Below are positions 8,330 through 60,322 of a stretch of DNA of 64,000 nucleotides, one piece after another. Source of the DNA: Raja brachyura. Lineage: Eukaryota. Under the pieces are notes generated by a model. It was not told the origin of the DNA, did not search any database, and was given only the letters and a program-made list of their open reading frames with translations. Location of the stretch: contig OY740792.1 of the NCBI GenBank assembly GCA_963514005.1, positions 30,566,001 to 30,630,000 on the forward strand, written 5' to 3'. Made by a program: the position numbers and the translations under genes. The first letter of the stretch is position 1. Each line of letters begins with the position of its first letter.

Positions 8330-8856
8330 TCATAGAGTCATTCAGTGTGGAAGCAGGCCCTTCAGCCCAACTTGCCCACACGGACATACCCCATCTGCAA
8401 TCTGACTGCTTTTGGTCCATATCCCTCTAAATCTATCCTATCCATGTAACTGTCTGAATGTTTCTTAAACACTGCAATAGCACCAGCCTCAACTACCTCC
8501 TCCAGCAGCTCATTCCATACATCCACCACCCATTGTGTAAAAAAAGTTACCCCTCAGGCCACCTACTCTGGGCAAAAGACTGTGCGTATACACGATCTAT
8601 TCCTCTCATAATTTTGTGCATCTCAATAAGATCACCCCTTATCCTTCTACACGCCAAGGAATATACCCCTAGCCTGCTCTACCTCTCCCTGTAGTTCAGT
8701 CCCTCGAGTCCTGGCAACATCCCGGTAAATCTTCTCTGAACCTTTACAAGCTTGGCAACATCTTTCCTATAATATGATGACCAAAATTGAACACAACACT
8801 CTAAATGCGGCCTCACCAACATCTTGTGTAACTATAACATGACCTCCCAACTTCTA
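8330..8856 (-). mobile_element. CR1 3' fragment
   Basis: catagagtca...caggcccttcagcccaac tail and RT C-terminal remnants on the minus strand. Confidence 0.75.
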
Positions 8857-8857
8857 T

Positions 8858-9085
8858 GTGTAGGAAGAAACTGCAGATGGTGGTTTACACCTAAGATAGA
8901 CACAAAATGCTGGAGTAACTCAGCAGACAGGCAACGTCTCCGAGTAGAAGAAATGGGTGATGTTTTGGGTCGAGACTCTTCTTCAGACCCTTGAGGAAGG
9001 GGCTCAATCCGAAATGTCACCCATTCCTTCTATCCAGAGATACTGCCTATCCTACTGAGTTAACTGCAGCATTTTGTGTCTATTT
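8858..9085. mobile_element. Older fold-back PLE pseudo-LTR copy
   Basis: Same inverted-arm structure, more diverged; no clear TSD. Confidence 0.75.
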
Positions 9086-10788
9086 CCATTGTTTGCAATA
9101 TTTCCTATATTTCATCAGTGAATGCACTTCAAAATGATTGGCTCTAGAATACTTTGGAATGTCCTGAGTTTGTGAATGATGCTGCTTAGGTTCAAGGCTT
9201 CCAATGGCTTCCTAATGTGACCAAAGGTCACAAGCAATCTTTGCATCACTTTCTGTTGTGTAGCCTTTCCCACTTTCCGTGCTATCACTGATCCCTCTGT
9301 TGTATTCTTTCCTTCCCCATTACTGTTCTCTCTCTCTGCGGACAATGCTTAAATCTATTTCTATATTTATTTCACGTATTCAATAACTACAGTATTTTGA
9401 TTTTTTTGAGTTGTCAATTTTGTTTTCCAAGACAAGATTAAAATGTATGAGAGCAAAGATTCGACACCTATTAAAGTGTATTCCAAAATATATTTTCATA
9501 TCGGTGGTTTAAGGGTAAAAGTCAGGTTCTTACAACATATTGGACACCATTTTGAATGCCTGCTTGCAAGATTTTTTATTTGAATTGTACAGCTGATATA
9601 GAACAGAAAACACAAGTTAATGATAGATCGCATCTGAATAATTACTACATGTTATTTGCTCATGCTTATCTGATGTCTGTTCATCCAAAATTTGACAATA
9701 GGGACAGTGTTTGAAAATATTACAAATTAAGAGTTCAGATGTTTTCAGAAACAATACTTAATATCTGGGATCTTCCTGGTACTGGGTATACCTATTCTTC
9801 CAGACTGGTCAAACGTTGCACGTGCAGATTTCTGCCCAAGAAAGAAATACAATAATTATTTTGAACATAAGATTATAAAAGCCACAACACGACAATTCTC
9901 ATTGCATTTGATTTAATAATTTAAAAGGTGTGCTGGTTATGTTGCGAGATTGGAATTAATTTGAAGCAGGAGAGTTCAAATCCCAACATGGCTGTTTAAG
10001 GATAGCAAATTGGGATTCTGAGAAAGCAACTGGAAATGTTAAAAGTTGTTACCTATAAAAATGATCATAAATCAGTCAGATTATCAAGCCTGTTCAGTGG
10101 TCTCCCTAAAGAGTGGGAAACCTTATCCAGTTTTGCTTGCGTGTGACTTCTGATGTGGTCAGCCCTTTGCCCTCACGAGCATGGAGACACACTTTCAATT
10201 CTATCAAACCACTACAAGGAATATACTTCTTTATTAGGTCAAAATCCACGTATCATTGTGGGTGTTTCTTCAAAACATATTACAATAGTTTGAAAATAAA
10301 GCTTACCACTGCCTTCTCAAGACAGTTTGTAATGGTTACTAATTTCTGACCATATGATGAGACCTAAATTGCAGGAATACATTTGAAAACTCTTTACTAG
10401 CGTTGGGTGATGAATTTATGATCAGACTTCCAAATCGTCCTGCATCCTCTGATATTCTCCTCCATTGGATATGTACTTTTCTGTACTTTGCATTAGCTTG
10501 TTAATTCTGCCTGAAAAATACTGCATCCACTAATGCAATGCTGATTTTCATCATTCCGCATTTGCCAGTTCTGCTTTCAATTACATTAGCTGTGAGTTCT
10601 GACATTTCTGACAGCCCGCTACTTCCCTCTCCTGCCTTTAAAGACACTCATTAACATTTACTTCTGACCAAACTTTTTGTCATCCCTGTATATCTCTGAG
10701 AGATTTGGTGCAAAAGCATTTTCAATGAAGAACTGTATATTGTGGACTTTAGGATGTTAAATCAACATGCAGTGAAGAATATTGATGT

Positions 10789-11021
10789 GTAAGAAGGAAC
10801 TGCAGATGCTGGTTTACACTGAAGACAGACACAAAATGCTGGAGTAACTCAGTGGGTCAGGCAGCATCTCTGGAGAAAAGGAATAGGTGAAGTTTCGGGT
10901 TGAGACCTTTCATCAGACTGAAGAGTCTGGTGAAGAGTCTCGACCTGAAACGTCATCTATTCCTTTTTCCAGAGATGCTGCCTGACCCGCTGAGTTACTC
11001 CAGCATTTTGTGTCTATTTTC
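10789..11021. mobile_element. Fold-back (palindromic) PLE pseudo-LTR insertion
   Basis: Two inverted pseudo-LTR arms; 15-bp TSD GAAGAATATTGATGT at 10774-10788 and 11022-11036. Confidence 0.85.
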
Positions 11022-11176
11022 GAAGAATATTGATGTCTGCCTTTCTTCTTGGTAGAAGCATTAGAGACTTCCAATCCCTTCTTAGAACATTGGGGAAACA
11101 GCCTGTATAACAATGTCTCATTTTTGCCACTTTCTAAGGCTGTGTGAAATTAGGTTGCTGCACTGAATGTGTTTGA

Positions 11177-11269
11177 GAAGAAGGGTCTCGACCCGAAACG
11201 TCGCCTATCTCCTTCGCTCCTTAGATGCTGCTGCACCCGCTGAGTTTCTCCAGCTTTTTGTGTAACCCT
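11177..11269 (+). mobile_element. Young solo PLE pseudo-LTR fragment
   Basis: Matches 26861-26953; begins inside the CUGA box, so the ribozyme core is incomplete. Confidence 0.8.
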
Positions 11270-14184
11270 TGCAGATTTAATAGCTATTCTGGTTAGTTGT
11301 TGCATGTTATTACCAGAGCTGAACAGTCGGGGGCGGTATTTGTGTGCAATAAAGTCCAGTGAATGAATGTGTTTACTTTTCATACTCAAATATTACAGCA
11401 AGATATACAAAGAAAGAGCATAATATAGACCTCTTGATTTTTATGCTGCTGTGTCATAAACTACATAGTAACAGAAATAAAGCTGATAATAAGGTAGTTT
11501 ATTTTTTACTGATTAACAGCAGGTATGTTGTGTTCCATGGAAATGAAAGAATGATGGCAGCATGCAGTGAGACCATTTGCCCTGTCATATCTGTACTACC
11601 ATGCAAAAGTAATGCAGTGAATTGATATCCCATTTCTCTAAACCTGCAAATCCTTTTCTTTCAGATACTTATCCAACTCCATTTAAAACACTATCATTGA
11701 ATATGTCTTCAGCACTACCAAGACAGTGCATTCCAGACCCTGACCATTTTATTTTCTTTGTGTTTGATTTGGATCTTTGGCCAGTTGATTTCATTCCATG
11801 TACCTTAGTTTGTTGACCCTTTCACCAAGGGAACAGTTTCTCTCTATCTCCTCAATTTATAACTTTCACGACCTCAGGCCAATCCTCTGACACTACACAG
11901 TTCCCAGAAGCAACACCCCATCTTCTCCAGCCTTTCCACAGAACTAAACCCATCACTTATTTCCTGGGGATGCCCAGACAGGACATTATGAAGTATTGGT
12001 TCAGCAACAACTACAGTATTAAGCTTCAGCATAGCTACTTTGCTCTTCCCTGTAGCTCCACATATAAAGCCCAGGATCCCCAATGTGTTTTAACCAATTA
12101 ACCTGCTTTTCCACTTCCACTCAACTTTACATATATCTTATGATCTACCTGTTCTTTTACCCCCTTTTAGAATTTTGCCCTCCATTTCACTTTTCAATCC
12201 TGCTACCAAATTACAACACTTAACATTTCTTAACATCTATCCACTAATGTACCAGCATGACTCTAACCCCTTGAAGGCTCATACTATCCTCCTTGCAGGT
12301 CACTGCACCTCCAAGAAATAGCACCCAGTAAACCTGTTTAGTTATTAGTATACATTTTCAAATGTATTGGTCCTTGGACTTAGCTCAATGGAGCTCCATC
12401 TACATTACCCTCCAATTTGAAAACCCAACTTTCATTTCTACTGAGTTTCCTGTTGGTTGGACATTTTTCTATCCCTAATGCTGCATCCTTATTCCAAGGT
12501 ATTCAGTCTGATGGAGGGCTTCGCCAAAATCTTTTGGAATTTCATGTGTACTTCAACACATTTCCCTCATCAAAAAACACTATCAAGCTGGTTAGACACA
12601 CAATTTGCCAGAAATAAAGTTATCTTATACCAGACACACAATTTTGTAATATCTATTTATAAAATGTGATCTTTTGAGTTCAATTTCTGTAGTTAATGAA
12701 CTATCAGCAAGGAAATCTTAATGCAGTTGTCATATTGAGGACTGACTGCATGACATACATCTAGAGCAATGCTTTTGGTCACTGTATTGTTCTGATAAGT
12801 CAGCATGCAACTCTCCCTCAAAGCATCCTGGAGCATAAAACACTATCTCTGTGTAGTTTTCTGGTTCTCTCTAGTTCTGGTCTTGAATGCCATCCTAATT
12901 TCCACCTGTAAATGGCATATTTTCATTTCAGCTGCCTGGATCCAAAAAATTAACATCTTCCAACCTTTTACAATTCTCTTTAAAATGTACCACTTTAGTT
13001 TTGCTATAGGTCAGCTATGCAAATATTTCCTTATGTGGTTCATTCTTGTTTGTTTTATAGATACTTTTGTGAAACCCCTATAAATACAAGTTATTACATG
13101 ATTACACAAAGCATCAGCAGATTTATTTTGGAAGTCTCAGGAGTAGCGTTTTGGCATGGTGTTTTAACCTTAGAATTGTCCACAGTGGTATGTGAAATGC
13201 TGGAAATGCTCAATCTCTGCAAAGAGTAGCATTAACCTTTCAGGCTGATGATCTTTCATCAGCGTATGAATTAATATCAAAATGAAACCTCTTGAGGTGA
13301 ACGAGGTAAAAGACAAACAGAATTCTATTAGAGAGCAAAGCAGAATTTGAGATGAGCATTGGTTGTGGCAGTGTTTAAACAATAATCAGCCAACTACATA
13401 TGTACAGTAAATTTGTAATAAAAACAGAAAATGCTGCTAACACTAAGCTGGTCAGGTAGCATCGATACAAATAGAAACAAAGATACTGCTGGATAGTGGG
13501 ATTGAGAAGACTTTGTAATGGAGAGACTGGGTAGACATGTACCATATATGGAAGAGGTTCAGGAATGATGTGGTTTTATTGTTACAAACAATAATTGAGT
13601 ACATTTTAGAAATTAGCCTGAGAATTACATTACTATGGCAGGGAAATACTAATCAAGGGAAATAATTCTCATGCCAGAATTAATCCGAATTGAGATTAAA
13701 GAGAGCTGAATAGCGGGCAAATTTGTGAAGTTGCCTCTGGATTGAATCGCCACTTCTCACGCACCTTACAAATTATTAAAATACATTCTGCGGTGTAAAA
13801 GTAGTTCCTTGACATGCATCATATTTTTCATGCTTTTGTTTCCTGTTGTCAGATATTGCACAACTAACCAGTAGTTTCTCTTCAGCAGGACTCGCCGAGT
13901 GCGTCTAAATTGTATTGTCAGAGAGCCTTCACTATACTGAAACGTTAACTACGAATTTATTTGTATAGATGCTGCTCAGTGTTTTTTTTCTGTTAGCTGT
14001 TGTTTGTAGATTTTGGTTTGATTTGAAAACGTTCTGAAACCCTATAGGTTTGTTTTCAATCTTTTGGGATTGTGTTATCCTGTACTCTTACAGCGATTCG
14101 AAGGGGCGCTCCGTGTCTTTTTCACTGCACTGGATAACACTCAGTCCCATTACCCCATATCATCTGTAATGTATTCTCATACAT

Positions 14185-14397
14185 AAGATAAACACAAAAA
14201 GTTGGAGTAACTCAGCGGGTCAGACAGCATCTCTGGAGAAAAGGAATAGATGACGTTTCGAGTCGAGACCCTTCTTCAATCTGAAGCATCATCTATTCCT
14301 TTTCTCCAGAGCTGCTGTCTGACCCGCTGAGTTACTCCAGCTTGTTGTGTCTATCTATCTTAGGTTTAAACCAGCATCTGCTGTTCTATCCTACACT
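14185..14397. mobile_element. Fold-back PLE pseudo-LTR insertion
   Basis: Inverted arms; 13-bp TSD TATTCTCATACAT at 14172-14184 and 14398-14410. Confidence 0.85.
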
Positions 14398-14559
14398 TAT
14401 TCTCATACATGTTCCTTTGAAGCTTTCCCGTAAGTCATCGTGTTGCATAGTAAGCAGAGGGAAGCAAGTTGTGAGCATTCGCTTAATTGCAACCTGTGCC
14501 ATACCTGCGCCTGGATGTGGCACTATGGACGTTCCTGAGTGTGTAACTTGTGCATGAAA

Positions 14560-17144: not shown

Positions 17145-17582
17145 CACTTAAGATAGGCACAAAATGCTGAAGCAATGCAGCGGGTCAGGCAGCGCCACTG
17201 GAGAAAATGCATAGGTGAAAATGCAAATGCAAGGATTCTTCGGGTCAGAATCCTTTTTGAGACTGATTGTTGGGGTGCAGGGAACTGGAAGCAAAAAAAG
17301 ACCAGGACAAATCCGGGCCAGTAACAGACCTTGATAGGCCAATTATTGATGTGATCCCAAGAGGGATACATTGTTGCGAACTATGGAACTGGTTAATTGA
17401 CTTATGGTCGATAGGGAGGGGATCGGATGTAGAAGTTACCCAAAATTAGAGAGTTCAATGTTCATACCAATGGGTTGTAAATTTTGCAAGCGAAATATGA
17501 CCTGCTGTTCCTCCCATTTGCGTGTGGCTTCCCTCTGGCAACGGAGGTGGCCCAGGACAGGAAGGTCAGTATGGGAATGGGT
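17145..17582 (-). mobile_element. Degenerate PLE 3' fragment inserted in a CR1 remnant
   Basis: Minus strand resembles the GIY-YIG C-terminus (EEQ.VIFRL) and a decayed pseudo-LTR similar to 34916-35300. Confidence 0.6.
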
Positions 17583-22699: not shown

Positions 22700-24665
22700 C
22701 TCATGTTGGTAAATAATTGACTGTTTGAATTCATTGTTTAGAGTCTTTAATTGTAAACTATAGCATCAAATGGGATCAGATTGAAGGAAATATCGTTGGT
22801 CGGAACAAACTTGCATTAATCACCATCTAAGCAGCTGAATCCTAGTTGGGATAGACACTAATGCTCAAGGATGACGATCTAGATGCCTAAACAAACCAAA
22901 CGGCAAGGCTCTCAACCAAGGATGTAGGTTCTTTTTGAGAAACAAAACTTTTTTGCGCCAAAATTGTATCACCTATGGTATTTCCTGATGGATCATATTC
23001 TGTGAACTCAAATCTGCTACTTTATATAGAAGTGATTTTGAGCTTAATCTTTCGGGGTTCTCCCAACTCGATCATTAAAGAATTAGATGGATTTAATGAT
23101 TGACGTTGAGTTTGGTCAGCAGTTGCCCCAAATTCTGATCATGTATCTTTGACCACTTCCCTTCCCAACTATCATCCACTATTTAACATATTGGCAGAGC
23201 AAGATTAATTTGAACAAATGAAACAACCAAAAGTAATACCGCAATAATACATGCGTGTTGATGCAATTACGTCAGTGTTTGAATTCTCACAGCCATTCAC
23301 AATAGAATCTATTTTTGTCTACGAAGGTCTTTACATATTGCAGAAGCCTTTTGCAAATGATAAATCCTACTCAGTCCAGCAATCAGCATTCATCAAAGTG
23401 GCATAATCTGATTATTTTTCTACACAGTACCAGAATGGAGGTTGGTGCCCTGCTCAAGTGGGAAGAGTCAGGCTTGACCCGGTCTTACCATTCAACAAGG
23501 CAACAGATTTAAAAAGCAAAAGCAAAATAAAGGCATAATTCAATAGGTTGATGACGTTAAATGTGTTTTTCTCTCCACAGAAGCTGTCTGACTTGCTGAG
23601 TGTTTCCATCACTTTTTTAAAAATTTCAGATTTCTAACATTTTTCCACATGAGTCGTCTTTCCCCTCATACAGGAGGTGATTACAAACAAGTGAACTCTG
23701 CTTCGGTGTAGGTAAAACGGACAGGGTTGTAAAGAGTAGCAAAGTCTCAAATATACTGCCAACTGTTTGCACTTTGCTTTTTTCTGTTCATAGAGTAGGG
23801 TGTTATTCAGAGTTGCAGGGCAGTTGAAAATGCCAATTTAGTTATGTCTTTAAACACGTTAAAAGAATTTAGTGAGGTCTTAAAATTGTGACCTAAAATT
23901 TAGGTGAACAGTGAATTGCTGACCTAAAGAACAATAGAAATGCTAAAGATAGGTGTGTGTCTGTTTTAGTGGGGAAGGGGGTGGGGGGGAGGGGGGCAAG
24001 GGTGGTGGAGGGGTGGAAGAGCTGGATGATGTAGCATGTGCTCCATCATAATTAACAGACATTTATCAACCAGTATTTATTGCCCTTAATTGCCTCCGGT
24101 AGTGAGCAGCTGCCTTGAACTGCTGCAGCCTCCATTAAGATTCTTTAATCTATTTCCAGGTTAGGAGGGATTAGAACATAGAGGGGAACCTGCAGATAGT
24201 GGTGTACCTATTTACTTGTTGCAGTTGTCTTTCAGTCGAGGTCATCAATGGGGGTGCAGATGAAGAAGCTTTGTCAACTTATGGTGCTGCTGGTGGATGG
24301 AGTGCATGCTTGTGCATGGCCAATCCAATCGTCAGTTTTGATTTGGTTGGTGACCGTTTGAAGTGTACTTGAATTGTAGTCACGCTGCAGAATTCCTGAT
24401 ATGCCTTGTATTTGATGGGAAGGCGTTGTAGGTTAGAAGATGAATCATCTATCGCAGGGTTTGTGAGCTGCTCTTGCAAGTGGATTCTATAGCTGGTGCA
24501 TTAAATTTAAGACGTGCTGATGACCCCTCCACCTCCTTCCCAGCACCCGACTGCCCCCAATTCCCCTTCCTGCAGCCGAGAATTGTGATAATAATGGATT
24601 GAATGTCAAGCAGGGGCAGTTGTACATTAGCCACGTGCTTTGTTGCCACTTTTCAGTCCAAGACG

Positions 24666-26150
24666 GAATGCTGTCCTGCACATACAGAGTGTTTCAATAT
24701 CAGAGGAGCTGCAAAGGGAACAGAGTATAGTCTTCATCCTGCATCACATGAAGACATTGACAAAGCAACCAAAGCTGGGACACTGCCCTGAAGAAATCCT
24801 ACAGTGATGTCCCGGGACTGAGATGATTGGACTTCCCTCACTGCAGCACTGAAGGACCTCTTGGATGAGCCTCAACTGCACGGTAATCTTTGAATGAACA
24901 CCAGTTGTTAATATTCATTATATACTGTACTAGTTAAGTGTGTATTTGCTCTCACATATGTCCGTCAGGTTTTATTTATGTTTTAAACACGTTTATTCAT
25001 AAAAAGTATATACAAGAATTTTTTTTTAAAACAATGTCGATTTCTTTGCTGTTGTTCATTCTATATTCATAGTATTATCAGGTCTGTACATTTGCAGTAT
25101 GAGCGCATTCTGTGTGCAAGGCTTCATTACCATTTAGATGGTACAAACTTCAGGTTTTGATAAGCTTTTAGCCAGGTCTTAGCCCCTCATTTCCAGTGGC
25201 AGAAGGCCCTTGCTTACATAACCTTCGCGTTGGCTGCAGAGCTTCACCGCGTCCCCCAGCATGTACGCCTACTAACAGGAATGTGCCTCTCAGCAACATT
25301 CCCTTATGGATATCTCATTGTACTGAAAGACCAACAAGTTTCAGACAGACCAAAGAGAGTCTTTCACTGTGTTGGTGAACATCCAGCAGCATTTAATGCT
25401 CGCCTTGCTATGCATCCCTGGGAACAGACCGTAGATCACAGAGTGCCTTGTTATGCAGCTGCTTTTTATTTTGAACTAGACCATTTCTCAGCTCAGGCTT
25501 CTGGCACCAAAGATCAGCCTTGTGGCCTTGTGTTTCATTCCCATGACTCAAAGCTCTCTGATATGTCTGGGTAAGATTTTGGAATACTGTATTGAATGCT
25601 CTGTCTTGAAATTCTGTGATTTTGCCGTGATACCCACGGCAAATAACAAATCTGATAATAGTGTTCATGGCTCTGGCCATAATGGAATCTCTTATCACAA
25701 CTTTCTCATTCTCTCATTCTCAGCCACTTCCCTGGCTAGCTTAGTGTTGACCGAGTATCTCTGCCCAATCTCCATCCCATCCTTAAGCCTTTGGAGTTTC
25801 ACGAGACTTCATAGATCAGGAACATGAAGCAGCACCAAATCCTGGCAATTCTGGCTCTACACCCTCCCAGCCAACGATGAAGTCTTAATCAGCGCCTGCT
25901 GCCTTCCGTTCTTCACTATCCAGGATGTCCAATATCTATTGGTAACACTAAATATGAGTCACAGTTTGAGATTTTGTGTCATATAGGCAGAAGGTGCAAA
26001 AAGACCTGCTGGAAAGAACAAAGAACTGAATGTTGTCCTGCAGGTACAGAGTGTTTCAATATCAGAGGAGCTGCAAAGGGAACAGAGTATAGTCTTCATC
26101 CTGCATCACATGAAAACATTGACAAAGCAACCAATGCTGGGACTCTGCCC
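24666..26150 (+). repeat. Dispersed 123-bp direct duplication (24666-24788 and 26028-26150)
   Basis: About 6 mismatches between copies; offset 1362 bp. Confidence 0.9.
25085..25700 (-). mobile_element. Degenerate L1/Tx1-like LINE 3' fragment
   Basis: Minus strand reads SVIYGLFPG and VKDSLWSV.NLLVFQ, motifs I recall from fish Tx1 ORF2 C-termini. Confidence 0.5.
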
Positions 26151-26858
26151 AGAGTCCTGACTGACTGACCTGACTCTGTCGAGAGTGAGAGGATTTCTGA
26201 GAAAAAGTATTCAACAAATCACTAATTATATACTCTAGGGCTTTGAAGGAAATGGCTCTGAGGTAGTTGATGCAAAGGAATCATCTTCCAAATTTCCATC
26301 AGACCTAGAATAATTTGCACATAATGGAAGATAACAAATGTTACCCACTGTTTAAGAAGAAGTGTCACATCAGGGAAGTTTCTGTAATTTAATATTGGAG
26401 ACTGGGTTGCTATATTAAAGGCAGAAATCAATAGATATCGGAAAGTCAAGGGATATGGGATCAGTGCAGAAGATTGACATTAAAAAAAATCAGCCATGAT
26501 CACATTGAATGGTGGAGCAAGTGTAAAGGGCCAAATGGCCTGCTCCTGATTACATTTCCTATGTGTAAGATTTAGATGCATCATTGTACCTTACAACATC
26601 ATGGCTGTTCTCCTGTCCTCAGAAATAAAGCTGTCTGTGGTTTACCAGGTTATATTCCTATAGATAACCCTCAATATTATTCCTAATCAATTTCAGAATT
26701 ATGCTTGTCTTCAAAGCAAAGCTACTAATAATGAGATTTTCGGTCATTTCCTTTGAAGATATCCTTTCACCAATACTTTTTTGCATATCTTTCACTCATT
26801 GTTCCTTATCTCTCCACATCACTGTTTATATCTCTCGTTTCCCTGATCCCTGACCAGT

Positions 26859-26886
26859 CTGAAGAAGGGTCTCGACCCGAAACGTC
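26859..26886 (+). ncRNA. Minimal type I hammerhead ribozyme core in the 5' pseudo-LTR
   Basis: CTGAAGA-A-GGGTC-TC-GACCC-GAAA-C-GTC: CUGANGA and GAAA boxes, stem II, palindromic ACGT helix III, GUC cleavage triplet. Helix I is only about 2 bp. Confidence 0.7.
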
Positions 26887-27999
26887 GCCTATCTCCTTCG
26901 CTCCTTAGATGCTGCTGCACCCGCTGAGTTTCTCCAGCTTTTTGTGTAACCCTCGATTCTCCAGCATCTGCAGTTCCTTCTTTAACAATTTGTCTACTCC
27001 ACTGCGATATCTCCTCAAGGTATGCCTACTTTGAAGAAGTTCTCTTCCTCCCTACGAAGACAGTTTCACAACCTCCTCTCTAACTGCTCCCCCTCTGTGA
27101 TACCCCCTTCCCTCCAACTCTACGACCACATCCTCACCCAGACTCGATACCACAGCCACATCTGCTTCCTCGGGGCCTGCCTGCGCCTCCACCTCATACC
27201 TCGTGGATTCCAGCTCCAATTCCCTGCCTCCCAGTTCGGACCCCAGCCAGACTATCGGTACCGACTGGCCATCCGCCGCCACACTGTGCAATTCTCCAAC
27301 CGGGCATTAAGATCCACCCTGGTTGCAATGCGCCGGCACCAGCAGGACCTCGCATTGGCTCTCCCGAATCTTCGGGCCTCACTCACCCAGACCTGCAACG
27401 GACCCCAACTACACTACATCCTCCGGAAGATCCACCGCTTCAATCAGCAATTAAACAGAGGTTCACCTGCACCTCCTCCAACCTCATCTACTGCATCCGT
27501 TGCTCCAGATGCCAGCTGATCTACATCGGTGAGACCAAGCGGAGGCTGGGCGATCGTTTCGCCGAACACGTCCGCTCGGTCCGCAATAACCAACCCGACC
27601 TCCCGGTGGCTCAGCACTTCAACTCCCCCTCCCACTGCGTATCCGACCTCTCGGTCCTGGGCCTCCTCCACGGCCAGAGTGATCAACACCGCAAGTTGGA
27701 GGAACAGCACCTCATATTCCGCTTGGGGAGTCTGCATCCTCTGGGCTTAAACATTGAATTTTCTTAATTCTGTTAACCCAGACTGCCTCCCCCCCACCTC
27801 TCCCTCAGCCCTCTGGCCCTGACATTCCTTCTCCATCTCCCCCCCCCCAGTCGCACTAGCTTCTCATTTTCACACCACAAACAGCTTACAATGGCCTGCT
27901 TCCTTTATCACCAATACTTTTTTGCATATCTTTCATTCATTGTTCCTTATCTCTCCACATCACTGTTTATATCTCTCGTTTCCCTGATCCCTGACCAGT

Positions 28000-28027
28000 C
28001 TGAAGAAGGGTCTCGACCCGAAACGTC
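28000..28027 (+). ncRNA. Minimal type I hammerhead ribozyme core in the 3' pseudo-LTR
   Basis: Identical to the copy at 26859-26886. Confidence 0.7.
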
Positions 28028-28717
28028 GCCTATCTCCTTCGCTCCTTAGATGCTGCTGCACCCGCTGAGTTTCTCCAGCTTTTTGTGTAACCCCCATCCT
28101 TTGAAGATATGTTGGGTATTTCCCCGAGGTGCATTGACAAGTTCATTATCATTTTCTAAGCGTGGTAAACCCAACATTCCTCAGACGTTGCTGATAATTC
28201 CTTGTAGCGTGTTAAGATCTGATTGTAAAAATGTATTAACCAGCATCTGCAGTTCTTTGATCATTTAGTACATTGGCCGAACCTACTGTGAAAGTATTGT
28301 ATTTGCTTTTACTTCGGTTTAAAATCTTTCCTACATTTTCTTAAATACATCATCTCTATCCCAGTGGCTAATTGTACCGCTGTTGTTATGCTTAATAACT
28401 CCCTTCTTGCACCTACAACAATATTTTAAGATTCAACTATTTACAGTAAATACTACAGCAACATTTACAGTATCAGCTTTGGCCGTATAACTATCATTTT
28501 TCAGCTGAGTGACGGCAAGTGTCAAACTCGTGCTTTCTGTTAACATGGGGTCTTGTATTTAGCCTCGTTACTGTAACAACATGGTCTTTACTGAGGCCTT
28601 GCACTACATAGTTCTGTCCCAGCTCTTTTATACCTGGGGTGGTGTAGAGCAAGAACGTTGCATGATTTGACACTGGATCAAGGAGGGGCAACAGTGGTGC
28701 AGCTAGTATTGGTCAAC

Positions 28718-34760: not shown

Positions 34761-34915
34761 ACGACCCCTCTGGATCTTTCATGCTTCGTCACATCTCACT
34801 GTTTTAATTTCCAGCAGGTACAAGCCTAGCCTGCTCAACCTTTCATCATAAAACATTATTAATGTTTAATGTTTAATGAGTCATTCCCAACTGTCACTGT
34901 TCCTAACTGTCATGT

Positions 34916-35870
34916 TTAAGAAAGAACTGCAGATGCTGGAAAAATCGAAGGTAGACAAGAATGTTGGAGAAACTCAGCGGGTGAGGCAGCATCTATGGAG
35001 CGAAGGAATAGGTGACGTTTCGGGTCGAGACCCTTCTTCAGACTGATGTGTGGGTGGGAGGGGGGGTGGGAAGAAGAAAGGAAGAGGTGGATACAGTAGG
35101 CTGTGGGAGAGCTGGGGAAGGGAAGGAAGGAGAAAGCAAGGAGTACCTGAAATTGGAGGTCAATGTTCATACAACTGGGGTGTAAACTACCCAAGTGAAA
35201 TATGAGGTGCTGCTCCTCCAATTTGCGGTAGGACTCACTCTGGCCACGGAGGAGGCCCAGGACAGAAAGGTTGTATTCGGAATGGGAGGGGGAGTTGAAG
35301 TGCTAAGCCACCGGGAGATCAGTTTGGTTAATGCGAACTGAGCGGAGGTGTTGGGCGAAGCGATCGCCGAGCCTGCACTTGGTCTCACCGATGTGGACCA
35401 GTTGACAGCTAGAACAGCGGTAGCAATGGATGAGGTTGGAGGAGGTGCAGGTGAACCTCTGCCTCACCTGGAAAGACTGCTTGGGTCCTTGGACGGAGTC
35501 GAGGGGGGAGGTAAAGTGACAAGTGTAGCATTTCCTGCGGTTGCAAGGGAAAGTACCAAGGGAGGGGGTGGTTTGGGTGGGAAGGGACAAATTGACCAAG
35601 GAGTTACGGAGGGCGCGGTCTCTGCGGAAAGCCAATAGGGGAGGAGATGGGAATGTGTGGCCAGTGGTGGATCCCGTTGGAGGTGGCGAAAATATGAGAG
35701 GATTACCTGTTGTATGTGACGGCTGGTAGGGTGGAAGGTGAGGATAAGGGGGACTCTGTCCTTGTTACGAGTGGGGGGATGGAGAGTGAGAGCAGAGCTA
35801 CGGGATATAGAGGAGACCCTGGTGAGAGCCTCATCTATAGTCGAAGAGGGGAACCCCCATTCCCTAAAGA
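34916..35870 (-). mobile_element. 5'-truncated Neptune-type Penelope-like element (RT C-terminal remnant, Cys linker, GIY-YIG, pseudo-LTR)
   Basis: AFRRDRALRNSLV...GTFPCNRRKCYTC...QRFTCTSSNLIHC...HIGETKCRLGDRF, with stops and frameshifts; hammerhead core at 35014-35041 on the minus strand. Confidence 0.88.
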
Positions 35871-37261
35871 ATGTATGTCATGTTGTCACTTGCGGGCGGA
35901 GCACCAAGGCAAATTCCTTGTATGTGAATACATGACAAATAAATGTATTCATTCATTCATTCATCCATTTAACAACACAGACAGCTATGAGTCTGCAAAA
36001 GTGGAAAATATTTTATATAGTTACCGTCACCAGTCATGGGAAAGAGATTGGAGCCATCGAGTGGGCACGCAGCTAATCACTAAAGTCACGGCTGGAACAA
36101 GATAGTTCAAGAAAGTAGAGCGAGGAGTAACCTAGCACGATTTTCAGATTATGGAAGACATTGACGGGGTTAACAAAAGAAGCTGGGAACAAAGTCGACT
36201 GATGAAGCATTATACTAAAGGAATAAATGGGAAAATTGGAACAAATGCTCTGCACAGCGGGAGTTATTATAACACGGAATGCTCTCCCACAAGCGACCAT
36301 TGAGACAAAGATTAGAACTAACATAATTTAAAAGTAAATTAGATAAGTTTTGGATAAGGGAAATTGAAAAAAATAATGTAATTAGAGTGCATTGGATTTA
36401 AGAGTCACCAGGAACACATGGATTGTATGGGGATGGCTTCAATGCTCCACACAGCCAGTATTTTGAACGTGTACAAGCCACAGGGTCTCTCGTCCTCCAG
36501 CCACACTAACTGGCAAACTTGTCCAACCTTTCGTTAAATAGAACGGGGGGCTAAGGATTTCCCGTTGTCCACAAGGAAGACTTCCTCGGTGTGGTCGTCA
36601 CCATTAAGCAGAAGGTTCTGCATTCAAGTGCAACCTAAACAGCAAGGCTAGCAGCCCCTGTAGCACTGGGCAGAGCTGCCCATCCAAGGTGCTGCCTTTC
36701 ACAGGAGGAATTAAATTGATCTTCTCCCTGCTGATTGCACAAGGTCTCATGGCACGATTTCAACAGGGAATCATGTTGGTCCCTGGTTGATATTCCTCCC
36801 TTGGTCAACATTGCCAGATCACGCTATCTGGTCATTATAGCTCTTTGCTGCTTGTGGGAACTTGCAGTGTTGAACTTGGCAGCAAGGTCTGATGCCTTTC
36901 AAAATATCAGTTGCCTCCAATACTTGCTGACAGGAAAATGAAAGACACTGACAATTGCAAGTCTTGTTTATCACAATCATCATTTATCAATTAGGTGCTC
37001 ACAAATATATTTAAACGCTGTCTCCTAAAATAAATCTGGCGATCTACTGTTTAATAATTGCACCGCACGATACTTGAACACGAACCAACTACAAGCACAC
37101 CAGAAATAACCTCAATAGAATCTTTCGATTCACTGGAAAACCTCAAGCTGATTCTAATCTATCTTCACTCTTGAGTCATACTAAACAAATGATATACAAA
37201 CGGCAATAATGCTCAGAGCCAATTTTCCTTTACTATAAAAATTGAATAAAAAAGCAAGAAC

Positions 37262-40410: not shown

Positions 40411-40597
40411 TGTAGGAAGAAACTGCCGGTGCTGGGGTAACTCAGCGGGACAGGCAGGAGAGAGGCAGGTCCATCTCTGGAGAGAAGGAATGGGTGACGT
40501 TTCGGGTCGCGACCCTTCTTCAGACTAGTCAGGGGAAATGGAAACGAGAGATATAGACGGTCCCGCTGAGTTACTCCAGCATTTTGTGTCTATCTTC
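40411..40597. mobile_element. Fold-back PLE pseudo-LTR insertion
   Basis: Hammerhead core 40496-40523 on minus; short inverted arm; 14-bp TSD GTATTTCATCTTGA at 40397-40410 and 40598-40611. Confidence 0.85.
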
Positions 40598-41313
40598 GTA
40601 TTTCATCTTGACTTGTACTTTGTAAATGGTGGGGAGGCTTTTGGGTGTGAATTGACAAATCGATCACATCTGGATGTCGGTACCAGGTGATTGGTGAGTA
40701 CGTGCAGCACAATATTGTTGTCAGTGCTTCTGCATCAATGACACGATAGTGAAAGGAGGTAACTGATAGGAGCACAAAAGTCCAAAGCTCCTCTGATGTT
40801 GTAAATCTTTGGAATTATACAGGTTAGAGGCTGCACATAATATGCTCAAGATGCAAATGCATAAATAATTGGGCATGAATTGAGACAGGAATCAGGAGAC
40901 ATATGGATCAGGTGGAAAGTTGACTTTTGGTACTGGAGCTATCTAATCCTGTGTTTGTCTCAACCATTAATGGCAGCACTGAATATCCAATCGCCCACAA
41001 GTCAGCCTTGTAGCTAATGTTGGCATTGTGCCCAACTAATGAGGATGCACTATTCAACTGAACAATTTTACCATGCAGAGAGGAAAGAAGAATATTATAC
41101 TTGCACTGCCCAGCAAAATCTCCAGCTGTCTCACAATGCATGCCATCTATCTGAGGTTGAGTCACTATTGTAATGAAGGGTTCAATTCAGTACCTTGTAG
41201 CAATTTTGGATAAGCAGGTACCAATGTTTCTGAAACACATTGGTTTGCTGTGCTAGGATTCCAACCAGGGGTGAGAGATTAGCACTGCATTTACGAAGGG
41301 AAGAGATAGTCTA

Positions 41314-43811: not shown

Positions 43812-44105
43812 CTATAGAGTTGCTGCTTTACAGAGCTTAGCGCCAGAGACCCGGGTTCGATCCTGATTATGGGTGTTGTCTGTACTGAGTTTGTACGTTC
43901 TCCCCGTGACTGCGTGGGTTTTCTCTGAGAACTTTGGTTTCTCTCCACACTCCAAAGACGTACAGGTTTGTTGGTTCATTGGTTTGCTATAAATGTAAAT
44001 AGTGATATAGGACAGTGTTAGTGTGCGGGGATCGCTGGTCGGCGTGGACTCGGTGTGCCGAAGGGCCTGTTTCCACACTGTATCTCTGTACTAAACTAAA
44101 CTAAA
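43812..44105 (+). mobile_element. tRNA-derived V-SINE (HE1-like)
   Basis: B box GGTTCGATCC, V domain gtttgtacgttctccccgtgactgcgtgggtttt, CR1-derived 3' end and (CTAAA)n tail. Confidence 0.85.
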
Positions 44106-47100
44106 GACAGACTGGGGACACCAGAAACATATTGGGGGCAGTTAAATAAGAGATACCTGGGGATGCCCTGGCTGTGCTTGGAAGAGGATGAGTAAAGCCC
44201 CATGAGAAGAACAGCATAGTAATATTGTTGGAGGAGCAATGTGTAATTGACAGCTTCAAAGATTGAAGAGAGATCAATGCACCATGGTTTCAGTGGATGC
44301 CAATTGAGTGCTAGAGTGACAAAGATTCATATTGTATTTGCTGCTGCTGAAATTGAGAGAACTTTCATGGTTAAAAATAAAATACTGGTTACTGTTGAAG
44401 GTTGGGGCATTTTGCGAGTCATTATATTTAAACCACTGCAGGAAATGTTTGTTTTTAAGTGCTTCTCAACTGAAGTGCCACATTTCTAAATATGTGTGGA
44501 AAAAAACTGTAGGAATGCTTCTACCAATGATCTAACCCAGTGCACTCATTAAATTAAACATGGATATGTTTATACTGAAAAGCACCATTAAGTATTAATA
44601 TTTTTACTTACTGGGAAACACTCAGGGCCTCTATTTCAAGACCTTTTTATGGAACAGTAGCAGGGATTTCTAATTATACCAGTTGAAGTAATCAGACGAT
44701 ACACACACACATACAGCCTTCTGCAGTGGAAATCTCTTGTGGACAATTCTGCTGGCTCTCAGATGAAATGGGGCTTTTTGTTGCTTGGAATCTGAGGCCA
44801 ACTCCCCAGCTAAAGCTGTCAGGTGCTGCATTTGACACCAAACACTGGAGGTATTTTATTATTACAAGACGACAAAGAGCACGTTACATTCAGAGAAAAA
44901 TAACACCGGCACCTGCTCCGTTTTAGAGGCTGACTCACCTGTCACTTTGCCAGACGGAGGTTCATCGAAAAGCGTTTTCTTCAAGTAGAGTTTGAAGTAA
45001 TGACCTATGTGCTGGGGAATGCAACAAAGCTAACCTATTCAGAGGCAGTGAGAAAATGAAAGAATGCAAGTTTCTGTGAATGTCTATTGGCATACTCTAA
45101 GAAATACAAAGCTGTATTCATGAAGAATAAGGAAAAAAATAAGTTCCACTACTTGGTATAAATCATATTAGTTCATCACACATGAACATTGCTGGGTCCC
45201 ATTACCCAATTAAGCAGGTATTTACCTGCATTTAGATTCACTGAATATTTTCGTTCTTAAAAAAAAATTACTACCTTTTTCATAATTTAATATTTAAAAT
45301 AGTTCATGTCTTCAAAACGGATAAGTTTTGCTACTTGTAGTTGTAAACCGTCTTCGAAGCAAGTGGATACAGCATCCATAAAAGAGAGAACAATGGGGTT
45401 TGACGAAGGCTGATTTGATTGTAACCTCAGTGCCACATTCTCCTCTTCTGCCCGTAATCTGTCTTGTTGATGCCTATTTAGAAACTATCTACAGGTGTCC
45501 CCTGCGTTGTGGCCATTGGGGCTATGGACATTCATCCTTACAGAAATCACAACTCATTACCCAAAGATTTGAGATGGAAGAAAATTCTCTCTGTGGGTAT
45601 TGTGTGAAAAAAAATAAGGGAAAGAGGAAAATGTTTAAAGGAGATTGCATGGGAAGTTTTTTACAGACAAGGTGGTGGGTGCCTGGAACGCATTGGCAGG
45701 AGTGGATGCATATATGATAGAGAAGTTTAAGTGGCTATTAGATGGGCACATGGATATGCAGAGAATGGAGGAATATGGATCATTTACAGGCAGATGAGAT
45801 TTTGTTTAGCATCATGTTCGGCACAGACACTGTGGCCTATTCCTGTGCTATATTGTTCTATGTTTCATTAACCCAACATTTTTTCAGCTCACCTTTCTTA
45901 ATGCAGGCACAGATAACACAGCTTTGCATTATGGAAGTTTGCAGTACTAGCCATATTCTAGGAATGCAACACCCACCCCCCTCTACTGTAATGCTTGGGT
46001 TGCCTGTACTGCTGGAATCTCCAATGATTTTGCTGTCGCTGCTCATTGAGGAAGGGAGCTCCAAATACTCAGAGCCCTCTATTTGAGATTCTAGCAAAGG
46101 TGGAAACAACTTGGAAGATCTTATTTCAATCAGGCTGCTTTTCAATCTTCTCAACCCCAGCAATACAAGCTCAGACCGTCCGACTTGTCTTTGTAAGACT
46201 ACTTGCCCATCAGAATGCTGTTTTGCATATATTAGCATTCCTCCTTACAAAAGGAGACCAATACTGAACATACTACTCCAGATGTACTCTCACCAGTGCC
46301 CCATATAACTGGTGTATAAAGTCCCCACGTTTGTTTTCAATTCCCCATACAATAAGCAATAATATTTTGTTAGCTTTCCTAATTGCTTGCTGCATGTGTA
46401 ACTAGCCCTCTGTGAAACATGCTCTGGAACACCAGATCCCTCTGCATCTCAGAAATCTCATTAAATGCTTTTTTTGATTTTTCATGATAAAATGGACAAT
46501 TTCCCAATAAAATGGACAATTTTCCCACATTGTTCTCCATTGCCAGTTCTTTGCGTACAAACTTCACATTTCTATCGCAACTTACTTTCCTATCTTCCTT
46601 CGTATCATCAGCAAATTTAGCTTAAAAGAAAATCAGCAAATCCTATCTGATATCTTATGAGCCAGAAAAAGCCATTTAGAACACAGAACATAGAAAAGTA
46701 CAGCACTGGAACAGGCCCTTCGGCCCACAATGTCTGTGCCAAGCATAATGCTAAGATAACGGCACATGATCCATATACCTCCATTCCCTGCATACCCTGT
46801 GCTTATCCAAAGACTCTTAAATGTCACTAATGTATCTTATATGCTATGTTTCATGTTAGCAGCCAATTTGCTATGCACTCCCAATCTGCTCCCTCTTTCA
46901 ACATGAAGTTTACCTTCTGCAATAACCTTTGATGAGGCACTTTTTCAAATGCCTTCTGGAAACTAAGCATAATACATGTAGGTGTGAGGAAGGAGTTTTA
47001 AAGGGATTTGAGAATAATATTTTACGCAGAGGGTATCTGGAACGCACTGCCAGAGGGGGTGATGGAATAAGATTCAATAATTGCATTAAAGAGACATTTA

Positions 47101-53405: not shown

Positions 53406-55419
53406 AAATGGGAAGGGGAATACACAGCGGGACAGGCACCATCTGTGGAGAGAGAAACAGATACAACGTTACAGGTCAATGACCCTTCATCAGAACTGCT
53501 GACACAAATTGGAGAGGTCCGATACCTGAAATAATTAAAATTATCCTTGACCATTATGGGCTCCAAGGTGCCAAGATACAACATTGAGTACACTATATCT
53601 GATTATATTAGCTTTGGTTGGAACAGTGTCAGAGGCCAAAGTTTTTTGAGGGTTGAATCAGAGAGGGTCCAAGTGAAAGTGAGAATAGGCTGGAAATTGA
53701 CAACAAAGGTGACTTCCCTCCCTCTTCCCTGCAACTTAACACATTGTGATCAGTTTATAAATTTGAAACATTTACTATTTCCACTGATGCTGCCCGACCT
53801 GCTGCACTTTTCAAAAAAATTTGGTTTAAAACTTCAAATTTCTGGCATTTGCTTTTGGGCAAGTTATCAAGGGATGAAATTAGGAAGAATGTTACGGGGT
53901 AGTGTTAGAAACTATCAATTTGCTTCTCAGGCCAGTGTTCAAAACAAATCCAGGGAATTAATAAAATTGCTGGCAAAATCATTCTACGAATACATTTCAA
54001 GAGCGCTAAAGCAATGTAATTGAATAATCAGAGATAATCCGAGTATGTCTGGGTGGTATTTAAACATGAATTCCCCTAGAATCTTGTGAATCAGTAACTC
54101 TCTCTCGGAAAACAATTGATCAATGACTGCACTAACATCGCAGTGGTGAAGGAGGTGCTGATGGAAATGAGATAATAAGCTTTGTGCTTCAGAAAACAAG
54201 TTCAAGGTCAGATGTACAGATGGTGACGTGAAATCTGGACCGCATGCCGCTGGATCAGTGAGGGTTTAACAGACTTCCCCCATGGATACGGCTATAACAT
54301 TGATCAGGGCACGATGATATAAAGTAACACAGACATTTGGCATGACCATTTCAATAGTGGTGGTGCTTTGAATTATAGCCCGCCTTAGATCTAGTACCCA
54401 CCTGGGTCAGTTCCATGATCCTATATTAACCCACATATCTAACCATACACATCAATCACATCTCAACGCAGCGGTGATTGATTTCTCTCCGTTGAAAAAC
54501 AGCCCAACGAGTACAGTCTCTGACGCAGATCACTGATCATGCTTGCTTAATTTGTGCAAATTAACCCTTTGATTACAAATCTCCTGCTTTCACCCCCCCC
54601 CCCCCCCCCCGCCACTGCTGAAGTAGTTCTGCTGATTCAGTAAATAACATAAGTGGCAGGTAAATGCAGTGGGAATGAGAAGTACAGACAATGGGAGAGG
54701 TTTGCTCTTGTCTGGAATGTGTTTCGCTGGACAGAAACTGGTATAACCCAGATATTTGACGGTGAAGGCTGGTGAAAATTTGACCTTTAATTCCCTGTTC
54801 TTGATGGGATGCCATCAGATAAGTCTGAATCTCAAAATATTTGGCATGTGGCTTCTCATAAGTATGATCAATGATAAAATTTATCCTCATTGCTTCCCCA
54901 AAATGGTACGATTTTCAGGCGATTTTCAAAGGTTTCTGGCCAGCGCTGTGTTTTTAAGTCATACTTGGAACGAAACATCTGCCTTGCAACCTTTAAATTC
55001 TAATGCTAATTTATCCCCAGGGACTGTTCGACAGGCGGACTGAAAGTCAGCCTGCATTGTTAACGGGATCACTCGGAATGGAATTACTTGATGGGAGTGA
55101 GGGATTAAGGGTGTCTCGTGTCCCATTAACGCGTGAGAGAAAGAAAGAGAATACAAAAGAGGAATAAGGTAGCTATTCCAGGGACTTTCCATTAATCAGC
55201 ATATTCAAAGTGAAAGTGTGCTAAAGTGTGCCTTTGTTTGTCTTCATTCGCACCATTGTTTTCTGTTGATGATACCCATCTGGTTTAATTCCAGAGGGTG
55301 CACCTTCTCTCTGCTATCTGACTGGCACAGAGGCTGCCTGGGCGAGGGGGCATCCGCTGAGTCCGACCCTGTCATCGGCCAGTCTCCACCCACGGAGCTT
55401 CCAACACGCAGATGGCGAT

Positions 55420-55750
55420 GTGTAAGAAAGAACGTCAGATGCTGGTTTACACCTAAGATAGACACAGATTGTTGGAGTAACTCAGCGGGTCAAGCAGCAT
55501 CTTTGGAGAAAAGGAATAGGTGACATTTCGGGTCGAGACCCTTCATCAGACGTAGTCAGGGAGGGGGACACTAGAGGTATGGGAAGGAACAGAACAAAGC
55601 AGAGCCTGCATCGATGACCGAGAACAGGTGGAGTAAACAATGGTCCATTGATGGCTGGGGACGAGGTGAAAATGAAGGAATACAAACGGTGAAATTAGCA
55701 AGAGGTCGAGGGTGGGGGAGGGACGGAGAGAGAGGGAATGTGAGAGTTAT
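55420..55750 (-). mobile_element. PLE 3' UTR and pseudo-LTR fragment
   Basis: Similar to 27770-28093 in reverse; hammerhead core with CTGATGA at 55522-55549. Confidence 0.75.
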
Positions 55751-56030
55751 CCAGAAGCATCAACCTTCCCAGGATGAGTGAAGTTTAAAGGTGAGGAACG
55801 CAGGAGTTTGTCACAGCACGGGACCTAGAGTCGGTTTGTACTTCTGACAGCTTCCCAAAAAGAGGAAAACCATGGATGCTGGCAATCTAAAATAAAAGTA
55901 GAGAATGGAAGAAGCACTCAGCAGCTCTGCAGACAGAGAATCATTGACTGATCTGGTACAGGATGTAGAGATACAGCATGAAAACAGGCATGTTGCCTCT
56001 TCACCAATCACCTATTCACACTACCTCCAT

Positions 56031-56232
56031 GCGTAGGAAGGAACTGCAGATGCTGGATTAAACCAAAGATAGACACAAAATGCTGGAGTAACTCAGCAGG
56101 ACAGGGAGCATCTCTGGAGAGAAGTAATCGTTGACGTTTCTGGTCTGACGAAGGGTCTCGACCCGAAACGTCACCCATTCCTTCTCTCCAGAGGTGCTGC
56201 TTGTCCCGCTGAGTTACTCCAGCATTTAGTGT
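56031..56232. mobile_element. Fold-back PLE pseudo-LTR copy inserted in a V-SINE
   Basis: Inverted arms; hammerhead core with CTGACGA at 56145-56172; degenerate TSD cacactacctccatg / cacacgacttctatg. Confidence 0.78.
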
Positions 56233-59025: not shown

Positions 59026-59190
59026 AAAGGAACTGCAGATGCTGGTTGAAACCGAAGATAGACACAAAAAGCTGGTGTAACTAAGCGGGACAGGCAGCAT
59101 CTCTGGAGAGAAGGAATTGGTGATGTTTCGGGTCAAGTCCCTTCTTCTGACTGCCTGGCCCGCTGAATTACTCCAGCTTTTTGTGTCTAC
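59026..59190. mobile_element. Fold-back PLE pseudo-LTR copy
   Basis: Long minus arm plus short inverted arm ending ttttgtgtctac. Confidence 0.72.
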
Positions 59191-60011: not shown

Positions 60012-60322
60012 TTTAGTTTAAAGATATAGTGCAGAAACAGGCCCTTCGGCCCACCGAGTCCGCACCGACCAGCGATCCTCGCACATTGACACTATCCTAC
60101 ACACACTAGGGACAATTTACACATACACCAAGCCAATGAACCTACTTGCCTGCCTTGGAGTGTGGGAGGAAACTGAAGATCTCGGAGAAAACCCACGCGG
60201 TCACGGGGAGAACATAACGGACAAACTCCGTACAGACTGCACCTGTAGTCGGGATCGAACCCAGGATTCCGGCGCTGCAAGCTCTGTAAGGCAGCAACTT
60301 TACCGCTGCACCACCGTGGCTC
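60012..60322 (-). mobile_element. tRNA-derived V-SINE (HE1-like)
   Basis: A box cacggtggtgcagcggta, B box gggttcgatcc, V domain and CR1 tail on the minus strand. Confidence 0.85.

Follow-up and report, generated by a model that had tools for sequence, protein, structure and literature searches.

Is an element that carries a hammerhead ribozyme motif in both terminal repeats and has lost its reverse transcriptase (RT) a Penelope-like element (PLE) turning into a retrozyme, or a defective copy? This question is raised by one element copy at 26749..28110 of a 64-kb stretch of Raja brachyura contig OY740792.1, hereafter called the window. A sequence-only reading of the locus had described it as a young RT-less PLE derivative with a specially retrozyme-like layout, whose two hammerheads could release a circular RNA from a read-through transcript, and had left a one-off deletion possible, rightly in our judgement. 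Our analysis showed that the element is a young, internally deleted PLE copy, probably of Neptune type, on the basis of its anatomy, its missing domains, its youth and the recent activity of its family. We lean, with moderate confidence, towards a one-off or low-copy defective insertion, in which the deletion is unique to the locus or present in few copies. All levels of confidence expressed here are judgements and were not computed.

A young PLE copy with a large internal deletion

As had been claimed, the element is enclosed by a 14-bp target-site duplication (TSD), TCCTTTGAAGATAT; its exact copies at 26749-26762 and 28097-28110 are the only two exact occurrences on both strands of the window; by a rough estimate, the chance of a 14-bp match close to both element ends is ~1e-6. 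Inside the TSD lie two pseudo-long terminal repeats (pLTRs), which are direct repeats of 186 nt at a spacing of 1141 bp and differ only by a C/T at 26795/27936, in agreement with the one-base difference noted before. Their divergence is 0.5% (95% interval 0.01-3.0%), and blastn of 26762-26952 against 27901-28093 returned 98.4% identity, a 2-nt gap extending the repeats to 26762/27901. The insertion spans from 120-125 nt upstream of the first predicted hammerhead cut to 66 nt past the second, and comprises a 1141-bp unit plus a ~190-bp repeat, that is, 1.17 units. The usual PLE layout, as described in PMC8557442, consists of partial-tandem pLTRs, to which a tail of 30-40 bp may be added at one end; the pLTR layout is likewise given in PMC2377424, and tails of this length in PMC11167929. 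The Neptune label is suggested by the linker in relatives and by Neptune and Poseidon being the vertebrate clades (10.64898/2026.07.22.740005).

Downstream of the 5′ pLTR, an open reading frame (ORF) starts with the ATG at 27022 and runs for 143 codons, the approximate length claimed earlier, which align from residue 1 with chondrichthyan PLE proteins (56% with P0002, and 74% over 74 residues with P0001 of Amblyraja radiata); an out-of-register run then leads to a stop at 27517-27519, giving 165 aa in total. For this N-terminal domain no Pfam match was obtained, and ESM Atlas gave no usable match. Three full-length relatives (P0052, P0068, and P0099) comprise the N-terminus, RT motifs, a CX2-5CxxC linker and an endonuclease (EN), and to a profile of these three (882 positions) the element matched at positions 2-125 and 778-880, with nothing between. 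The absent positions 126-777, ~650 codons or more, correspond to the RT, the thumb and the CX2-5CxxC linker. Together with the single mismatch in 186 bp of pLTR, this bears out the description of a young RT-less derivative and confirms the loss of the whole RT, and the deletion proved wider than proposed, taking the thumb and linker too. Because the chondrichthyan relatives have a longer Pro/Ser/Thr-rich spacer, the deletion is estimated at 2-2.5 kb. The linker occurs in 3/3 full-length relatives and, with a strict pattern applied, in 11/38 EN matches; it is also found in an older copy at 34908-35884 of the window (minus strand; the 35-kb copy), which shows 83% identity over the endonuclease and keeps thumb and linker upstream. 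Since the alignment with the 35-kb copy begins at 27456, with thumb and linker still upstream there, the join was placed at ~27448-27453, inside the 27425-27480 zone given earlier. In the relatives, the N-side breakpoint is followed by F or Y, and on the far side K/R-Q is mostly preceded by I; these residues point to a microhomology of ~3 nt at the junction.

The endonuclease remnant gave a Pfam GIY-YIG match of E 4e-4 and 21 bits, below the 22.6 cut-off, and scored 86% against P0069 of Leucoraja erinacea. The best protein matches point to a skate as host. Residues Y13, C17, C20, Y24, G26, R35, H55, E84, and N100 are common to 8/8 aligned sequences, and H39 is kept in this copy. The endonuclease had been called intact and out of frame; its conserved residues are indeed kept and its frame is shifted, but "intact" overstated the case. 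The frame contains no ATG anywhere in 27084-27767, the linker is gone, and its stop at 27765-27767 is probably three codons early, where P0069, the closest relative, has Q-F-C; F-C-stop can still be read in the DNA that follows, and the end of P0069 corresponds to 27774-27776. The endonuclease is therefore a remnant rather than a retained gene, and the claim of a retained frame falls with the missing start codon. Both coding remnants are free of frameshifts, which argues that the deleted form has not been drifting for long, and open frames are expected in so young a copy. With its RT absent, the copy is unable to move by itself. At most, a 165-aa truncated peptide is predicted to be made, the endonuclease frame being an untranslated passenger that would still be open because of the youth of the copy.

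Two minimal hammerhead motifs and their predicted folding

The claim of identical cores with predicted cuts was borne out, as the same core, CTGAAGA-A-GGGT-CTCG-ACCC-GAAACGTC, is present in both repeats with its GUC ending at 26886 and 28027. In hammerhead 1, C3 lies at 26859, an extra A precedes a 4-bp helix II, loop III is absent, an ACGU palindrome occupies 26882-26885, and helix I consists of 2 bp only, U.G and G-C. The absence of loop III together with the palindrome implies that the hammerhead could act only as a dimer. This architecture fits the minimal type I PLE motif described in PMC4209133, with an extra base 9/10.1, G10.1-C11.1 and a palindromic 15.2-16.2, so that the dimer-only minimal class proposed before agrees with that description, activity being predicted. 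Rfam gave 0 matches in the window at the gathering score, and at E<=10 over the element it gave no hammerhead and two chance lncRNA matches only; the putative hammerheads are thus assigned from the motif and the PMC4209133 description. Within the window, 20 matches lie <=7 substitutions from the hammerhead core, nine of them with intact catalytic boxes, indicating that the motif is common there. A 4-bp helix I considered for the copy at 8986 was discarded, its upstream bases belonging to the adjoining inverted arm. For PLEs generally, minimal hammerheads in both pLTRs, a dimer architecture, low activity and a circle model have been reported (PMC4209133), and a review gives the same picture (PMC6765202). 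The layout regarded before as specially retrozyme-like is thus already general for PLEs, and deleted copies have been published as well (PMC3846280, PMC8557442).

ViennaRNA folding was used to predict the behaviour of the read-through RNA; with Mg and tertiary contacts outside the model and no positive control, it is weak evidence. In the RNA 26767-28093, the pair probability of the inter-copy helix III is ~0 and, without a positive control, forcing the double hammerhead costs ~29 kcal/mol, so that the in-cis dimer proposed by the sequence-only reading is not favoured by the prediction. Instead, a stretch of the endonuclease region, 27547-27560, is predicted to pair with hammerhead 1 at a probability of 0.89 and with hammerhead 2 at 0.09, which would mask the first cleavage site by an antisense stretch. 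Pairing as good was reached by 1/1000 shuffles for a 17-nt core picked after viewing the fold, by 54/1000 for the whole motif, and by 407/1000 in the older 35-kb copy, where the pairing is absent; given the latter two values, it is not claimed as a conserved feature. The 1141-nt circle contains 38% C and is predicted to be 47% paired, with a z of -1.5 against 40 shuffles (no retrozyme control folded). Taken together, the hammerheads are standard pLTR motifs that probably cleave poorly in this RNA.

Relative to the 35-kb family, two changes improve the antisense pairing, a silent Arg codon change and an A-to-G just after the cut; the latter also weakens helix I, and the antisense match may be due to chance. 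In each pLTR, a pyrimidine tract ending in CAG adjoins the 5′ side of helix I (26820-26857 and 27961-27998), and the end of a D. virilis intron is reported to place a pyrimidine tract and CAG likewise 5′ of helix I (PMC4209133). A hypothetical splice from the donor-like site at 27017-27025 (27020) to 27998 would delete both coding remnants, and the 35-kb copy has a GT...AG stretch across its 3′ untranslated region (UTR). An upstream ATG at 26909 within the pLTR opens a 41-codon out-of-frame ORF (26909-27034) that overlaps the main start codon.

Recent activity of the family and copy number of the deleted form

Further insertions in the window demonstrated that the family of the element is recently active. 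A 93-bp solo fragment of the same young family at 11177-11269, in which the hammerhead core is missing its first two bases and for which no TSD was found, is 100% identical to 26861-26953. Another insertion of this family at 61532-61755 consists of an inverted pLTR arm (61542-61638) and a direct arm with a tail (61638-61735), the two (61542-61735) being bounded by a 17-bp TSD at 61532 and 61739; the direct arm begins 4 nt after the predicted hammerhead cut. The 35-kb copy is a 5′-truncated PLE with the RT thumb, a CX4CxxC linker, a decayed endonuclease, a 3′ UTR, a hammerhead, a tail and a 9-bp TSD. Of 8 insertions tested, 5 showed TSDs, 9-17 bp in length.

Among the young 3′ ends, 3/4 fall at about +62 to +67 relative to the cut site and 1/4 falls at +102, the tail end, and the predicted cut site is not the end point of any of the 22 pLTR alignments; 3′ ends of older copies at +61 were not counted as true ends, as these alignments stop where the families diverge. 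This distribution fits two internal RT start sites, as described for the Anolis element PAc of the Poseidon clade, in which unprocessed RNA is reported to be the main template (PMC11167929). In the same account, hammerhead mutants of PAc left insertion in vitro unaffected, and RNA-seq revealed no read ends at the cut (PMC11167929); carrying these results over to Neptune would be an extrapolation between clades.

No second copy of the junction was found by blastn in the 64-kb window, and the junction was found in none of 106 retrieved proteins (68 N-terminal representatives and 38 EN matches), sets from which the parent family is absent. Three of the 106 carry both domains as separate matches, and all three are full-length with RT motifs. 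Exact protein look-ups found 0/3; a near-length search gave 1 match among 42 candidates and a longer search 1 among 169. The literature searched contained no description of this skate unit, one query having been swamped by hammerhead-shark papers. Two singletons among the 68 N-terminal matches, P0030 and P0047, join an N-terminus to endonuclease or linker without RT and may be gene-model artefacts. Distant parts of the PLE ORF are also joined (N-terminus to mid-RT or endonuclease, RT to endonuclease) in P0051, P0077, P0080, P0088, P0091, and P0101, as real deletions or gene-model artefacts.

Comparison with known PLEs and retrozymes

The element resembles Neptune-type EN+ PLEs in its partial-tandem pLTRs, minimal type I hammerheads, 30-40-nt tail, variable TSD, N-terminal domain and GIY-YIG CCHH endonuclease (PMC8557442, PMC4209133), whereas those elements encode RT and EN in one ORF with a CX2-5CxxC linker, and this copy lacks RT, thumb and linker and has its EN out of frame without a start. 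By its sequence, it is classed as a defective derivative and not as an autonomous EN+ PLE member. An Adineta copy is described as pLTR-flanked, with a 10-bp TSD and a microhomology-mediated internal deletion, many copies being disabled likewise (PMC3846280), and a transcribed Chlamys-3 copy is reported with a 2.84-kb internal deletion (PMC8557442). The present copy shares pLTR bounds and a large ORF deletion with this Adineta Pen2 derivative (scaffold 304) and the Chlamys-3_cRei copy; a TSD is shared with the former, and a retained promoter is presumed for the latter (PMC3846280, PMC8557442). It differs from both in clade and host, in its direct repeats with hammerheads in both, and in the join at the EN domain start. 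Chlamydomonas MRC1 (PMC8557442) and the short Heliconiini Penelopes (10.1101/596502) are likewise RT-less, pLTR-forming and dependent on a partner RT, but they are multi-copy families, whereas one copy was found here in 64 kb, with 5′ coding sequence kept too.

Animal non-LTR retrozymes are alike in having type I hammerheads in a direct repeat, no RT and a PLE-related pLTR (PMC7229834; 10.64898/2026.07.22.740005). They are reported as short non-coding tandem arrays of ~300 bp, or 51-972 bp in the 2026 survey, whereas the element consists not of at least two full units in tandem but of one 1141-bp unit plus ~190 bp, and its 1141 nt include ~750 nt of PLE coding remnant. Their canonical hammerheads have a helix I of ~6 bp and a loop-loop contact, and their highly self-paired circles were seen by northern blot (PMC7229834); here the hammerheads are minimal, with a 2-bp helix I and no loop III, and the predicted circle is 47% paired (no retrozyme control folded). 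The 2026 survey also accepted minimal motifs, under a 1000-bp period cap (10.64898/2026.07.22.740005), so that a 1141-bp unit would be missed by it. Plant LTR retrozymes share two hammerhead direct repeats, an RT-less body of similar size and a TSD, and are described with type III hammerheads, a Gypsy-type PBS/PPT and a 4-bp TSD (10.64898/2026.07.22.740005; PMC7229834), in contrast to the minimal type I hammerheads, 14-bp TSD and PLE origin of the present copy; neither a type III hammerhead nor a 4-bp TSD was found in it. Classification as a retrozyme is therefore not warranted, even though a circularised form of the element could behave like one.

Origin of the deleted copy

A one-off or low-copy defective insertion is supported by the canonical PLE arrangement of pLTR-tail-ORF-pLTR (PMC8557442, PMC2377424), by the internally deleted precedents (PMC3846280, PMC8557442), by the recent activity of the family nearby and the 3′ ends of its young copies, by the lack of an EN ATG, the probable early EN stop, the coding remnants free of frameshifts and the single junction in 64 kb, and by the absence of the retrozyme features. 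In this scenario, the RT-endonuclease of a full-length relative would nick the target, and reverse transcription would start inside the RNA, at a point ~66 nt 3′ of the hammerhead cut. Copying would then pass in turn through the endonuclease region, the N-terminal region and the leader before entering a further copy of the 3′ end for ~190 nt, and the insertion would leave the 14-bp duplication. The deletion itself likely arose when a jump took place at the short microhomology, either already in the donor or in the course of this copying; later DNA repair is the less likely route. Splicing is an unlikely cause, as it would require the parent to have had GT immediately following the breakpoint on the N side, and such a donor would be weak. 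The timing and mechanism of the deletion, its low copy number and the poor cleavage are all what we infer from these data.

Several points weigh against a one-off insertion, and most of them speak for a young non-autonomous PLE family that is multi-copy in the manner of Chlamydomonas MRC1 and which a Neptune RT would copy in trans from uncleaved tandem or read-through RNA by internal priming, with little or no part for the hammerheads; we regard such a family as rather unlikely. A short RNA should be easier to copy end to end than one of 3-4 kb, so that short templates would be finished more readily, and a full pLTR-to-pLTR copy is what a non-autonomous family is expected to leave. The element is such a complete pLTR-tail-body-pLTR unit with a clean TSD, it keeps the pLTR cis ends without the RT, and its family has recently been active in the window. 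pLTRs alone are reported to suffice for mobilisation in trans (PMC3846280), non-autonomous PLEs exist (PMC8557442; 10.1101/596502), and in vitro it was mainly uncleaved RNA that served as template (PMC11167929). Joins of N-terminus to endonuclease or linker recur in P0030 and P0047, subject to the gene-model reservation made above. The 64 kb are a tiny sample for the copy number of the junction, and nothing in the protein sets is closer than 75% to the N-terminus; the silence of these sets on the junction is uninformative because the parent family is missing from them. Moreover, 2/22 pLTR arms start 2 and 4 nt past the predicted cut (14293 and 61638), which hints at occasional copying of cleaved RNA, and the folding penalty was obtained without a positive control. 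A multi-copy family is countered by the lack of a second junction copy in the window, and the nearly undecayed coding remnants would allow only a very recent one. The 3′ end also lacks the tail and downstream leader, which in PAc contain the region required for priming (PMC11167929); reasoning across clades, this may make the locus a poor donor except in circular form.

Circularisation is the core of the model put forward by the sequence-only reading, in which a double hammerhead formed in cis in the read-through RNA would release a 1141-nt monomer that closes into a circle and is copied for more than one round by a Neptune RT, yielding a unit plus ~190 nt, an intermediate between PLE and retrozyme. 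Both cores and the ACGU palindrome are intact, and a circle would rejoin the 3′ UTR to tail and leader. Since the insertion reaches 120-125 nt farther upstream than the first cut and 66 nt farther downstream than the second, a cleaved linear monomer is excluded as the template whereas a circle would be possible; an uncleaved tandem transcript, however, yields identical ends. The two arms that begin at +2 and +4 from the cut would suit this model, as would the argument that animal retrozymes come from PLE pLTRs, but in that account only 1/9 Xenopus dimers cleaved (10.64898/2026.07.22.740005). Minimal PLE hammerheads are described as weak even as dimers (PMC4209133), PAc needs no cleavage and its RNA-seq shows no ends at the cut site (PMC11167929), and the circle, at 47% paired and z -1.5, is unlike the highly self-paired retrozyme circles (PMC7229834). 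The 2-bp helix I with its U.G, the helix III probability of ~0, the ~29 kcal/mol cost (again without a positive control) and the first cut site paired at 0.89 to 27547-27560 add to this, and we hold the circle model to be improbable. Its fullest form, a spreading non-autonomous skate Neptune family copied from a hammerhead-made 1141-nt circle, a PLE turning retrozyme whose ribozyme is gated by an endonuclease antisense switch, has in our view an equally small chance; such a gate, if true, would explain the keeping of the endonuclease region. That the remnants are kept for a product, either a 165-aa N-terminal peptide poisoning full-length dimers or a -1 frameshift fusing N-terminus and endonuclease, seems very remote to us. 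The P-element KP repressor offers an analogy for a truncated peptide that poisons dimers. The ATG with 143 intact codons spans most of the conserved N-terminal block, and in PAc, of another clade, the N-terminal helix 27-173 is predicted to dimerise (PMC11167929). Youth alone, however, accounts for the open frames, the EN probably has an early stop, and the ATG at 26909 opens its ORF across the main start. At the junction (27450-27475), A TTA AAC with a weak 5-bp hairpin close downstream would, after a -1 shift, fuse the two remnants. A TTA AAC is one base off a slippery-type heptamer; this heptamer is mostly the family's own I-K-Q coding, and the hairpin lies only 1 nt downstream.

Significance

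As a single defective copy, the element matters little, such copies being known, and it would become notable only if the same shortened form proved spread through the genome. The function of pLTR hammerheads is called unclear (PMC8557442), circles have been proposed (PMC4209133), and cleavage was dispensable in vitro (PMC11167929). The locus is of value as a compact substrate, since a unit of 1.1 kb that contains both ribozymes, a natural tail and a junction usable as a unique marker is easy to transcribe and to follow by RNA-seq. If the deleted form were shown to be multi-copy and to form circles, autonomous PLEs and animal retrozymes would be connected by internal deletion rather than by pLTR amplification, and in a spreading circle-copied family the short near-identical copies would allow a direct test of pLTR regeneration from circular templates.

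Feature coordinates and older repeats

Table 1. Parts of the Raja brachyura element, as positions in the window.
Feature	Position	Strand	Basis or remark
5′ TSD copy, 14 bp	26749..26762	.	exact match to 28097-28110
5′ junction bases	26763..26766	+	prolong the repeat upstream if a 2-nt gap is accepted (blastn)
5′ pLTR, a 5′-truncated upstream copy of the element 3′ end	26767..26952	+	186 nt, differing from the 3′ copy at one base
Minimal type I hammerhead 1	26857..26888	+	motif, as in PMC4209133; predicted cut after 26886
PLE tail, 36 nt, after the 5′ repeat only	26953..26988	+	same-family insertion (61638-61735) ends at precisely that point
Remaining 5′ leader, ending in splice-donor-like AAG/GTATG that overlaps the start codon	26989..27021	+	sequence; donor role putative
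PLE N-terminal domain, 143 uninterrupted codons	27022..27450	+	alignment to chondrichthyan PLE N-termini; truncated ~15-20 residues short of the conserved block end
Deletion junction	27448..27453	+	alignment with relatives and older 35-kb copy, profile match
GIY-YIG endonuclease remnant with CCHH residues	27450..27767	+	Pfam, relatives; stop 27765-27767
Endonuclease stretch complementary to hammerhead core and cut site (26879-26891)	27547..27560	+	predicted pairing
3′ UTR, non-duplicated part, pyrimidine-rich	27777..27907	+	sequence
3′ pLTR without tail	27908..28093	+	end 66 nt beyond the predicted cut site
Minimal type I hammerhead 2, identical to the first	27998..28029	+	motif; predicted cut after 28027
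Filler at the 3′ junction, 3 nt	28094..28096	+	sequence
3′ TSD copy, 14 bp	28097..28110	.	exact match to 26749-26762

Older pLTR scraps, often as inverted pairs, lie at 8850-9090, 10774-11036, 14172-14410, 40430-40598, 55417-55580, 56029-56235, 59027-59197, and 61967-62139, those at 10.9 kb and 14.2 kb having TSDs of 15 and 13 bp. Self-comparison of the window also revealed an older endonuclease-end fragment at 17441-17567 and two other interspersed repeat pairs, 24663-24791 with 26025-26153 and 43815-44115 with 59996-60302.

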